Source: Escherichia coli
GTDB taxonomy: Bacteria > Pseudomonadota > Gammaproteobacteria > Enterobacterales > Enterobacteriaceae
NCBI RefSeq assembly: GCF_048403405.1
Contig: NZ_CP183129.1
Direction: 5' to 3' (one strand)
Length of the DNA: 64,000 nucleotides
Shown: piece by piece, positions 3,613 to 18,889 of the stretch
Layout of the letters: each line of letters begins with the position of its first letter
Position numbering within the stretch: position 1 is the stretch's first letter
Notes under the pieces: generated by a model
What the model saw: the letters and a program-made list of their open reading frames with translations, nothing else
Told to the model about the DNA's origin: nothing
The model's database searches: none
Program-made: the position numbers and the translations under genes

Positions 3613-3692
3613 GCCTGATGCGCTACGCTTATCAGGCCTACGAGTTCAGTGCTCTACGTAGGCCGGATAAGGCGTTCACGCCGCATCCGGCA
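3613..3692. repeat. REP/BIME element (two inverted REP units)
   Basis: gcctgatgcgctacgcttatcaggcctac and gtaggccggataaggcgttcacgccgcatccggca match the E. coli REP consensus; sits between cynR and codA 3' ends. Confidence 0.8.
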
Positions 3693-15050: not shown

Positions 15051-15296
15051 CTACGTAATCAACCTGATTTGCCGAATCCCGACCATCGGCGATGATAGCC
15101 CCCGTAATGCGTGGTCCTTATTTCCGATAAGTTTACTTGAGTCTTTAGCTTCCCATTTCAGCCCACTCTCCCCTGTGTGGGCTTTTTTCATTGCTCTGCC
15201 CCGTCCTGAATAGCCAAACAATGGCAATGTTTCACTTTGCAGGGATGATAATAAGGGGATCTGATTCAGAAGAGTTATGAAAAGTTGGACCGCCAT
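15051..15296 (-). CDS. yahM: Hypothetical small protein
   Basis: ORF 15051..15326 with internal ATG at 15294-15296; overlaps the yahN terminator on the opposite strand, so coding status is uncertain. Confidence 0.4.
   Translation of the reverse strand: MAVQLFITLLNQIPLLSSLQSETLPLFGYSGRGRAMKKAHTGESGLKWEAKDSSKLIGNKDHALRGLSSPMVGIRQIRLIT
15161..15188 (+). terminator. Rho-independent terminator downstream of yahN
   Basis: gcccac-tctcccctgt-gtgggc followed by tttttt. Confidence 0.65.
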
Positions 15297-15708
15297 CGAG
15301 GCCTCGAACCCCGTACCATACAACAATCCTGGTTGTCGTCTGCTCTTCCTGATGAGCTAATGGCGGTTTTTGATATGAGCCTTACAGCATATTTTCTGTC
15401 AGGCTTGAGTGCGATGCGTAAGATACAGAAAAGACCCCACACAAACATGATGGAATTATGATTTTTTTCATATGAATGTCAACCCACACATTCACAAAAC
15501 ATCTGCATGAGATCATTTTTTATACACCGTATAGCTGCGAAACCACTGCTGATGCTTTTTTAAGCGAAGCGTCGCCGATCACAACAAAATATCGGCGAAA
15601 AAGGCGGTGGAATGCCATTTGGCATACGGATATACAGATGAAATGATTACCTGCTTTGCGATTCACTCTCTGGTGGAATAACAACTCGCAGGTGGAACCC
15701 TTTCTGAA

Positions 15709-16524
15709 CTAAAGAGTGTAGCGGATTTTAACGTGCTTATTTACAGGATAATATCTGTCACCTAATTCCTGGACTCTATTAGATATCCATTGATTTAATC
15801 GCGCATCATCTCTGTATGTTTTTACGTCCAGAACAGAGAGCAATAACATCACCAGTGATTCAGGAAAAACAGGGTAGATATTTTTTAAGTGTAATAATAA
15901 TCCATGCGCAAGCGCCTGCTTAATGGGCGCGTCGGTCTCCGGGATAGACGACATTTCGCGAAGCCATTTTTCCACATGCATACACTCTTTCCCTTTAGGG
16001 AAAAGTCTCAGCAAAGGCATATGGTGTTCAAGAAGAATACATTTGCAATCTGTTCGCACTGAATCGATAAACTGCACTAATTTCTTAAGCCCGGTAAAGC
16101 GTCCAGCCTGCACATTTGCTTTAATATCAAGAAACGCATCGTCCTGGTCATATACCCAAACTGTCCCTTTTTGATTTTCAAGTATGCGAAAAACAAACTT
16201 AACCGGGTGATCAGGGTAATCCATCCAGTCATAAAACCCAGGGAAATCATTAAACTGCACATTTATGGTGAGTGCGTTATCGTCTGACCACTCACAGTCT
16301 CGTACGGCAGCCATGAGATGAATGAGTTTGTCGTCATCGACTAAATCATCACGACAATCATAAGGATAATCATAATATTGTTTAATCAAAACCTTGAATA
16401 TATCGACACAGGAAACCAGGGAGCTTTTGATATCCTCTGGTAACTGATTGTTTTTAACCGTATTAAGTATGCTTTGTTGCGTATATGGCATCAAATTATT
16501 GTGCGGAGCTTTTAATGATATCAT
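15709..16524 (-). CDS. yahL: Uncharacterized protein
   Basis: 271 aa ORF; AT-rich, no recognisable catalytic motif. Confidence 0.7.
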   Translation of the reverse strand: MISLKAPHNNLMPYTQQSILNTVKNNQLPEDIKSSLVSCVDIFKVLIKQYYDYPYDCRDDLVDDDKLIHLMAAVRDCEWSDDNALTINVQFNDFPGFYDWMDYPDHPVKFVFRILENQKGTVWVYDQDDAFLDIKANVQAGRFTGLKKLVQFIDSVRTDCKCILLEHHMPLLRLFPKGKECMHVEKWLREMSSIPETDAPIKQALAHGLLLHLKNIYPVFPESLVMLLLSVLDVKTYRDDARLNQWISNRVQELGDRYYPVNKHVKIRYTL

Positions 16525-16691
16525 CGCGATCTCTCTTAAATAAAAATAAACGTCGCAGATAATAAAGCTCTGATTAAACCAGGCACTATCAGAAATCGCT
16601 CATAACTAACGTGTGAAGTATTGTGTACTGGAGGGAGTTAATTTAACAATTTGAATTTACGTTATAGGTTTTACTGCTACTTTGATATTAT

Positions 16692-16729
16692 TTCGCTCTC
16701 CTTAACTAAAAAGTTAAGTGGAGAGCGAA
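16692..16729. other. Long inverted repeat (10 + 6 bp arms) immediately 3' of yahK
   Basis: ttcgctctcc-ttaact-aaaa-agttaa-gt-ggagagcgaa; no clear U-tract on either strand. Confidence 0.5.
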
Positions 16730-16766
16730 GTTAATATGTTAAACCACAGGGTATTTATTAATTTTT

Positions 16767-17816
16767 TCAGTCTGTTAGTGTGCGATTATCGATAACAAAA
16801 CGATATTTCACATCTCCTCGCAGCATTCGCTCATAGGCTTCATTAATTTGATCGGCCCGAATCATCTCTATATCAGCCACGATGCCATGTTCGGCGCAAA
16901 AATCGAGCATCTCCTGAGTTTCTGGAATGCCGCCAATCATAGAACCGGCTATCGCACGGCGTTTCATGATCAGGTTGAAAACTTCCGGCGATTTATGCGG
17001 TGTCGCAGGCGCACCAACCAGCGTCATGGTGCCATCACGCTTCAGCAAGGTGGTAAAATCGTCGAGATTATGTGGCGCAGCTACTGTATTCAAAATGAAA
17101 TCGAAACTCTTGAGATGAGCCGCCATCTCATCGGCATTGCGTGAGTTAACAACTTCATCGGCCCCCAGGGCTTTTGCCGCTTCGCGTTTTGACTCAGAAG
17201 TGGTAAATGCCACCACATGCGCCCCCATCGCGTGGGCCAGCTTAATCCCCATATGTCCCAGACCGCCGATGCCGACCACGCCCACTTTTTTACCCGGACC
17301 GACCTGCCAGTGACGTAGCGGCGAATACGTGGTGATCCCTGCACACAACAAAGGTGCCACCGCCGCCAGCTGCTCTTGCGGGTGACGAATACGCAGAACA
17401 TATCGCTCATGAACGACGATCTGTTGTGAGTAGCCGCCCAGAGTATGGCCCGGTTCGTCCGGCGTCGGCGAGTTATAGGTGCCGGTCATGTGATCACAGT
17501 AGTTTTCCAGCCCGTCTTCACACTCTTCGCAATGTTTACAACTGTCGACAATACAGCCGACACCGACCAGATCGCCCGGCGCATATTTTTCTACCTGATC
17601 ACCAACAGCTACCACGCGCCCTACAATTTCATGGCCCGGCACGCAGGGATAAACCGTCCCCGCCCACTCGGAACGGACCTGGTGGATATCGGAATGGCAG
17701 ACGCCACAGTAAGCGATTTCAATTTTGACATCATGCGGTCCCGGTTCACGCCGGGTGATATCCATCGATTCAAGTGGTTGTTTAGCGGAATATGCACCAA
17801 CAGCTTTGATCTTCAT
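16767..17816 (-). CDS. yahK: Zn-dependent alcohol dehydrogenase-family aldehyde reductase
   Basis: 349 aa; zinc-ADH motifs (GHEIVG; structural-zinc cysteine cluster CxxCxxC); Rossmann GVVGIGGLG. Confidence 0.85.
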   Translation of the reverse strand: MKIKAVGAYSAKQPLESMDITRREPGPHDVKIEIAYCGVCHSDIHQVRSEWAGTVYPCVPGHEIVGRVVAVGDQVEKYAPGDLVGVGCIVDSCKHCEECEDGLENYCDHMTGTYNSPTPDEPGHTLGGYSQQIVVHERYVLRIRHPQEQLAAVAPLLCAGITTYSPLRHWQVGPGKKVGVVGIGGLGHMGIKLAHAMGAHVVAFTTSESKREAAKALGADEVVNSRNADEMAAHLKSFDFILNTVAAPHNLDDFTTLLKRDGTMTLVGAPATPHKSPEVFNLIMKRRAIAGSMIGGIPETQEMLDFCAEHGIVADIEMIRADQINEAYERMLRGDVKYRFVIDNRTLTD

Positions 17817-17902
17817 TGTGTTTACTCCTGATTAGCTATGTGTATTTGGCGATGCCTGATATGTCATCGCGGCAAAACGCGTCCATTGAATATAGCCAAT
17901 AT

Positions 17903-18889
17903 TTAAACCACCCGATCCAGCCCCAACATGCCGCGAGCCTGAATGAAACAGAGCAGCAACGTTCCCCATAAGGCCATCGTCAGGTAGGGGCTTATACCGA
18001 GAATATTGAAGCCGCTTTCAATAATTTGCAGAAGAAACAGCGCCAGCACCATACCAATTATCCGCCCGCTGCCGCCGTCCGGATTAACCCCGCCGAGTAC
18101 TGCCGCGAGGATTGACACCAGCAAGTACGATTCGCCATAAGAGGCCTTAGCCGAGTTGAGTTTCGACATCATCAAAAATGCCGCTACCGCACAAAGCAAG
18201 GCGGAAATAACATACACCCATATCAGCACCCGACGAGTGTTAATACCGGAGTAAAGTGTTGCTCGTTCGTTAGAACCAATCAGATAAATGGCTTTACCGA
18301 GCGGCGTTTTCTCCAGCAATATCCACAGCCCCAGCGCCACTGCGGTAAACAACCACATCGGTAGCGGAATACCGAACCACTGTGCATGATTCAACCACAG
18401 CACCCATGAGGGATAATTGGCAATGGCGCTACCGCCTGTCACCAGAATATTTACCCCTTTGAGCAACGTCATCATCCCAAGCGTTGCAAGAATTGGCGAC
18501 ACTCGAATACCAGCAATCAATACGCCGTTACATAAACCGATTATCACCGCCGCGCCAGCGCCCGCCAGCAGCGTAGCGACAACCGTAGCAATACCCGGTG
18601 GATACTGAGTCGCCACCCACGCCATCACCAGTGAACAGGCGTTAGCAGTGGCTATAATTGACAAGTTAATGCCACCGCAAAGCATGGTCACCGCCATAGC
18701 CAACGCCAGAATGCCCAGCACGGGCATTTGCGAAGCGACGGACTGGAAATTACTTATCGACCAGAAAATCTCCGGCATAGTAATGCTGAACGCGGCAACA
18801 GTTAGCACCAGCAGGCCGATCAAGTAAAACTCAACGTTATTACGCCACGATTTTTTCATAGCAGACTCCGGTTCTGATGCTGACTCCAC
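17903..18889 (-). CDS. ABC transporter permease (sugar/CUT2-type)
   Basis: 328 aa polytopic membrane protein, second of two tandem permeases. Confidence 0.75.
   Translation of the reverse strand: MESASEPESAMKKSWRNNVEFYLIGLLVLTVAAFSITMPEIFWSISNFQSVASQMPVLGILALAMAVTMLCGGINLSIIATANACSLVMAWVATQYPPGIATVVATLLAGAGAAVIIGLCNGVLIAGIRVSPILATLGMMTLLKGVNILVTGGSAIANYPSWVLWLNHAQWFGIPLPMWLFTAVALGLWILLEKTPLGKAIYLIGSNERATLYSGINTRRVLIWVYVISALLCAVAAFLMMSKLNSAKASYGESYLLVSILAAVLGGVNPDGGSGRIIGMVLALFLLQIIESGFNILGISPYLTMALWGTLLLCFIQARGMLGLDRVV

Follow-up and report, generated by a model that had tools for sequence, protein, structure and literature searches.

Dar and Sorek (2018) described Rho-dependent transcripts that have precise steady-state 3' ends directly after stable stem-loops lacking a U-tract. 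In these transcripts, termination occurs farther downstream, PNPase and RNase II trim the RNA back to the stem, and rut sites are found just beyond it, and by energy the stem-loops themselves cannot be told apart from those of intrinsic terminators (Dar and Sorek, 2018). Two other described systems place a stable structure at the end of a message: canonical intrinsic terminators, where a stem-loop past the stop codon is followed just afterwards by the transcript end, and REP/BIME elements, which are extragenic palindromes able to block 3'-5' exonucleases at the message end and which form a multi-copy consensus family.

We compared these systems with a bulged stem-loop in the 3' UTR of yahK, located within a 64,000-nt stretch of E. 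coli DNA (contig NZ_CP183129.1; hereafter the window) at positions 16692–16729 on the minus strand, equivalent to 343971–344008 in MG1655. yahK (16767–17816, minus strand) encodes a 349-aa NADPH-dependent aldehyde reductase, and the hairpin starts 37 nt after its stop codon. The next gene, yahL (15709–16524, minus strand), has its start codon 168 bp downstream of the hairpin. The gap between the two genes spans 16525–16766 and measures 242 bp at 32% GC, in line with the AT-rich gap of that length in the first-pass annotation, which had been made from the sequence alone. The MG1655 record has no feature annotated in this intergenic region.

In the yahK sense, the hairpin RNA reads UUCGCUCUCC-AC-UUAACU-UUUU-AGUUAA-GGAGAGCGAA, comprising the outer 5' arm (16729–16720), the AC bulge (16719–16718), the inner 5' arm (16717–16712), the UUUU loop (16711–16708), the inner 3' arm (16707–16702), and the outer 3' arm (16701–16692). 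On the plus strand, this corresponds to TTCGCTCTCC (16692–16701), TTAACT (16702–16707), the loop AAAA (16708–16711), AGTTAA (16712–16717), the bulge GT (16718–16719), and GGAGAGCGAA (16720–16729). The sequence, a repeat finder that returned the same arms, and the predicted fold all agree on an inverted repeat of 10 bp plus 6 bp with a 2-nt bulge and a 4-nt loop, as first described, and 8 of the 16 stem pairs are G-C. When the flanks are included in the fold, AUAUUA (16732–16737, minus strand) is predicted to pair with UAAUAU at 16690–16685, extending the stem by a weak 6-bp A-U helix of which it is the 5' half.

The yahK-sense hairpin RNA has a minimum free energy of -20.4 kcal/mol (z = -5.9), and none of 200 shuffled sequences was as stable; the plus-strand RNA folds at -20.0 kcal/mol. 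We also shuffled the entire 242-nt gap 400 times with dinucleotide content preserved and scanned the results in 40-nt windows, and none reached the best observed value in the gap (-21.3 kcal/mol, compared to -18.8 kcal/mol for the best shuffle). The hairpin is therefore real and non-random, yet its structure is neither extreme nor unusually elaborate. On the plus strand alone, twelve 40-nt windows within the 64 kb fold at or below -20.4 kcal/mol. The stem-loops of the Dar and Sorek class are energetically like intrinsic terminators, so the earlier comparison, in which the hairpin came out as more elaborate than a typical terminator, does not settle the matter, although the arms and loop on which it was based are as described.

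On the sense strand, the stem is followed by AUAAUAUC, where 3 of 8 nt are U, and on the opposite strand by GUUAAUAU. A U-rich tract of 7-8 nt is absent after the stem, there is no T-run on either strand, and a terminator consensus scan of 16300–17000 found nothing, which bears out the earlier remark that the hairpin lacks a T-run in both directions. Its weighted T score is 0.82, compared to 2.6-4.7 for the terminators that follow yahK orthologues of other genera. A canonical intrinsic terminator was rejected on account of the missing U run, despite the 8 G-C pairs in the 16-bp stem. Such terminators do occur at this position after the yahK orthologues of Enterobacter sp., S. bongori, and others, and the E. 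coli hairpin resembles them in lying past the stop codon with the transcript end just after it but differs in having no U-tract, in having RNA ends at +3 to +5, and in being part of a Rho-sensitive region.

Small open reading frames around the stem were also considered. On the sense strand, AAGGAG in the 3' arm has no following start codon, and a small ORF there was rejected. On the plus strand, a 19-aa ORF, MLNHRVFINFFSLLVCDYR (16736–16795), is antisense to the region around the yahK stop codon; its ATG lies 12 nt downstream of the GGAG in the hairpin arm, and its codon 6 reads V, M, or I across the hairpin alleles. We did not retain it as a gene, as it overlaps the end of yahK and has no independent support.

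The hairpin and the first ~60 bases downstream of it are identical in K-12 MG1655 and the window. In the Term-seq data of Adams et al. (2021, eLife 10:e62438; supplementary files 1 and 3, where the printed flanks include the entire hairpin), an RNA 3' end is called at MG1655 344013(+), or window position 16687, in LB at OD 2.0, which is 5 nt from the stem, and another at 344011(+), or 16689, in a third condition (M63 per the caption), which is 3 nt from the stem. A second, independent map (TRS; Nat Commun 2023, PMC10687069, supplementary file 4) places a terminus at 344007–344015, with its peak at 344012 (16688), and labels it 'Primary yahK'. The mapped steady-state 3' ends from the two sources thus occupy 16685–16693 on the minus strand, with those called by Term-seq and the TRS peak falling within the 3' half of the predicted A-U extension. 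We found no 3' end called at the hairpin in the LB OD 0.4 sheet of Adams et al. (2021), which is why this end carries neither a position-specific Rho score nor an intrinsic-terminator score. yahK is absent from the TERMITe and SMRT-Cappable-seq supplements.

These data establish that the hairpin marks the mapped 3' end of yahK mRNA in K-12. Adams et al. (2021) class their ends here as "orphan", only because their distance from the yahK stop codon exceeds 50 nt. Less probably, the ends could belong to a short transcript that begins within the 3' end of yahK instead of to the full yahK message. The first-pass annotation had proposed 3' end mapping as a check and had suggested a stabilising 3' RNA structure as one possible role; the two K-12 maps, which end the transcript 3-5 nt after the stem, answer the former, and together with the Rho-dependent flag on the region they support the latter.

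That flag comes from a Rho termination region whose peak lies at MG1655 344049(+) (window 16651), 41 nt past the hairpin (Adams et al., 2021, supplementary file 2). Downstream/upstream reads rise from 24/32 without bicyclomycin to 225/83 with the drug, giving a Rho score of 3.61 (p = 1.8e-5) that was calculated over 800-nt windows at low read counts (Adams et al., 2021). Bicyclomycin could also raise the yahL signal by relieving the repression of a promoter in the AT-rich region of yahL, as opposed to causing read-through from yahK. The 78 nt past the hairpin (16676–16599, minus strand) are mildly enriched in C, with 17 C against 8 G (C/G = 2.1), and contain the Rho peak at 16651. On composition, this C-rich, G-poor stretch is a candidate Rho loading region, and its placement agrees with the rut sites reported just downstream of protective stem-loops.

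Since the structure, the 3' ends, the Rho data, and the excess of C over G all match the class of Dar and Sorek (2018), we read the hairpin as an ordinary protective stem-loop at the 3' terminus of a Rho-terminated yahK mRNA, left behind after exonuclease trimming, and give this reading a probability of roughly 0.72. RNA polymerase would pass the yahK stop codon and then the hairpin without terminating, because no U-tract follows the stem. Rho would load on the untranslated C-rich, G-poor RNA directly downstream and end transcription farther on, within the gap or early in yahL. Processive 3'-5' exonucleases (PNPase, RNase II) would then shorten the tail and come to a halt at the stable stem, producing a defined end 3-5 nt beyond the last base pair and shielding yahK mRNA from 3' decay. 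This model has four established parts, namely the structure, the lack of a U-tract, the 3' ends mapped in vivo, and the bicyclomycin-sensitive region. By analogy with the described class, the yahK ends probably arise by exonuclease trimming, and the hairpin probably stabilises the yahK message. The locus resembles the class in having a stable, U-tract-less hairpin with a precise RNA 3' end directly after it, a stem energy within the intrinsic-terminator range, bicyclomycin-sensitive read-through downstream, and more C than G just beyond. It differs in that dependence on pnp and rnb is an extrapolation here and that the Rho evidence is a regional score from few reads.

A genome-wide search for similar repeats had been suggested along with the hairpin, and it revealed a single-copy element and not a repeat family. 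We found the hairpin in 5,087 of 5,426 complete E. coli genomes (~94%), at a median of one place per genome, with second places reported only where the perfect palindrome matches both strands. No similar sequence was detected elsewhere in the 5,426 genomes, and the 64-kb window holds no further copy at up to 3 mismatches. A search of 15500–18000 against Rfam (E <= 10) returned only a chance snoRNA match that lies elsewhere, leaving the hairpin without a family. A dispersed repeat or mobile-element end (REP/BIME, MITEs) was rejected given the lack of other copies in the window and in the 5,426 genomes. Like REP/BIME elements, the yahK hairpin is an extragenic palindrome of a kind able to block 3'-5' exonucleases at a message end, but it is single-copy and unrelated to them in sequence. 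A REP-like hairpin is present elsewhere in the window, at 3653–3692. The first-pass annotation had named two observations that would count against it, a lack of other copies in the genome and transcripts that read through without processing or termination; the former is what we found, while the latter is contradicted by the defined 3' end, which leaves the finding unrefuted.

Among E. coli strains, 2-nt indels (TC or CA) in the 5' arm of the hairpin (window 16718–16729) distinguish three alleles, each of which folds stably. Allele A, carried by the window and K-12, has the bulged stem (about 3,950 records, -20.4 kcal/mol); allele B occurs in B2 strains, NC101 and Nissle 1917 among them, and has the 5' arm TTCGCTCCAC and a 2x2 internal loop (547 records, -18.7 kcal/mol); and allele C is a perfect 16-bp stem without a bulge (roughly 540 records, -25.8 kcal/mol). 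Across five aligned strains that represent all three alleles, the 3' arm is invariant, while substitutions, single-base indels, and an 11-bp deletion are seen elsewhere in the gap. Judged from these alignments, the allele pattern is compatible with selection on structure, with the changes being 2-nt indels in one arm and no compensatory substitutions.

The downstream gene is less constant. At a coverage of at least 80%, yahL is present in 4,014 of the 5,426 complete E. coli genomes, compared to 5,087 for the hairpin. Lineages with the B and C alleles lack yahL and keep the hairpin beside yahK, and in the B2-type strains NC101 and AVS0285, the junction lies 6 nt upstream of where yahL would start. 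Since the hairpin is kept beside yahK where yahL is absent, the element appears to be tied to yahK and not to yahL. Outside E. coli, a YahK scan of genome contigs together with three contig look-ups found no homologous hairpin; the closest yahK genes (<=91% identity) sit in unrelated contexts and are followed by unrelated hairpin-plus-T-run terminators.

Other rearrangements are visible around the locus. In strain SCAID WND1-2022 (L086, about 2528), an IS1-family element abuts the hairpin loop, and the yahK side is deleted through hyxB. In PSS-08-1 (L003, 4036–4128), an IS3-family element has taken the place of the gap, starting 36 nt upstream of yahL and extending through yahK. Each of these insertions is a single event seen in one strain. 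Upstream of yahK, ABC-transporter permease genes precede it in this strain (window 17903–18889 and upstream, minus strand), K-12 has yahJ and a 376-bp gap, and NC101 retains only a 75-nt gene remnant. Since the upstream context differs among the three, the yahJ-yahK junction appears to be another indel hotspot. On the far side of yahL, MG1655 has the newly annotated xtpA (b4845, 60 aa; 345252–345434), which lies between yahL and yahM and overlaps the start of yahM; the corresponding position in the window holds a 57-aa ORF (15275–15448, minus strand). Near xtpA, published MG1655 data place an orphan 3' end at 345390 and, within yahM, a strong Rho region at 345585.

Several other explanations of the hairpin have to be weighed. 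It is unlikely, though conceivable, that the hairpin acts directly as a weak intrinsic terminator of a non-canonical kind and releases some polymerases, with or without Rho back-up downstream, perhaps aided by NusA or NusG and the A/U-rich tail. A stable hairpin is rightly placed for this, RNA 3' ends are found just beyond it, the tail (AUAAUAU) is A/U-rich, and yahK orthologues in other genera have hairpin-plus-T-run terminators at the equivalent place. Intrinsic release usually occurs 7-9 nt after the stem, whereas the yahK ends are at +3 to +5. Of the 3 U in the first 8 nt none touches the stem, the weighted T score is the low 0.82 given above, the d'Aubenton-Carafa d-score is about -50, the consensus scan was empty, and read-through in the region is sensitive to bicyclomycin. 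Dar and Sorek (2018) do allow that some U-poor stem-loops may act as inefficient intrinsic terminators backed by Rho. We find it improbable that the hairpin is a neutral relic, an indel scar or mobile element end that blocks exonucleases as any stable hairpin would. Its confinement to E. coli, the position of the gap beside a variably present yahL, the slippage-type 2-nt indels without compensatory changes, and the IS elements that struck the gap in individual strains would all fit such an origin. However, the hairpin is single-copy, with no similar sequence in 5,426 genomes and no Rfam family, and so has no visible mobile-element parent; it is also present in 5,087 of these genomes, with a 3' arm that is invariant in the five aligned strains while the gap otherwise varies. 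This reading concerns the origin of the hairpin, and whatever that origin, it is the hairpin that sets the end of the mRNA in vivo.

The remaining two explanations give the locus a regulatory role, and both receive little credence from us. We consider it very improbable that the hairpin and the Rho site form a regulated gate, in which weak Rho activity or a melted or occupied stem would let yahK transcription read into yahL-xtpA-yahM, an AT-rich and variably present block, and in which the trimmed 3' UTR fragment might also persist as a regulatory RNA or as a ligand of a 3'-end-binding protein such as ProQ. The bicyclomycin-induced rise in downstream reads is the sole observation in its favor, and none of the literature matches listed links yahK to Hfq, ProQ, or RIL-seq. 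More doubtful still is a DNA operator for a dimeric regulator, for example of yahL, with the RNA 3' end being incidental. The palindrome is long and near-perfect and lies in the promoter-distal part of the yahL upstream region, and genomic SELEX has given signals near yahK/yahL for minor sigma factors and CRP. However, the SELEX entries name yahL or the coordinate 343660 and not the hairpin (343971–344008), and the method is of low resolution. A CRP site at the palindrome was looked for and rejected, as the nearest resemblance is a TGTGA half-site about 90 nt away, and there is no promoter-like site nearby. The 3' arm is unchanged in the B and C lineages that lack yahL, and the alleles shift the spacing of the outer half-sites by 2 bp, which an operator tolerates poorly but an RNA stem does tolerate. 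The suggestion in the first-pass annotation that the structure may be a protein-binding site thus finds no motif or binding data that point to the palindrome, the SELEX entries being gene-level or elsewhere.

Together, these findings leave the hairpin as a genuine feature whose properties are best explained by a known mechanism, that of the protective 3' stem-loop on a Rho-terminated message. The mechanism class has been known since 2018, and the raw evidence for yahK was already in published supplementary tables. What can now be assigned to yahK is a defined 3' end together with a likely mode of termination, and the Term-seq peak classed as "orphan", whose listing by position puts it upstream of yahL, makes more sense as the end of the yahK mRNA. 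The distribution of the neighboring gene has a practical side, in that yahL was put forward for qPCR testing of water as a signature gene conserved in E. coli/Shigella (2024, PMC11057252), and such a marker would miss about a quarter of complete E. coli genomes. The three natural alleles, with a bulged, an internal-loop, and a perfect stem, make up a handy series for relating stem stability to 3' end position and mRNA half-life. Otherwise, the finding adds little beyond annotation, and it provides one more case of the rule by which U-less stem-loops form the ends of Rho-terminated messages in E. coli.
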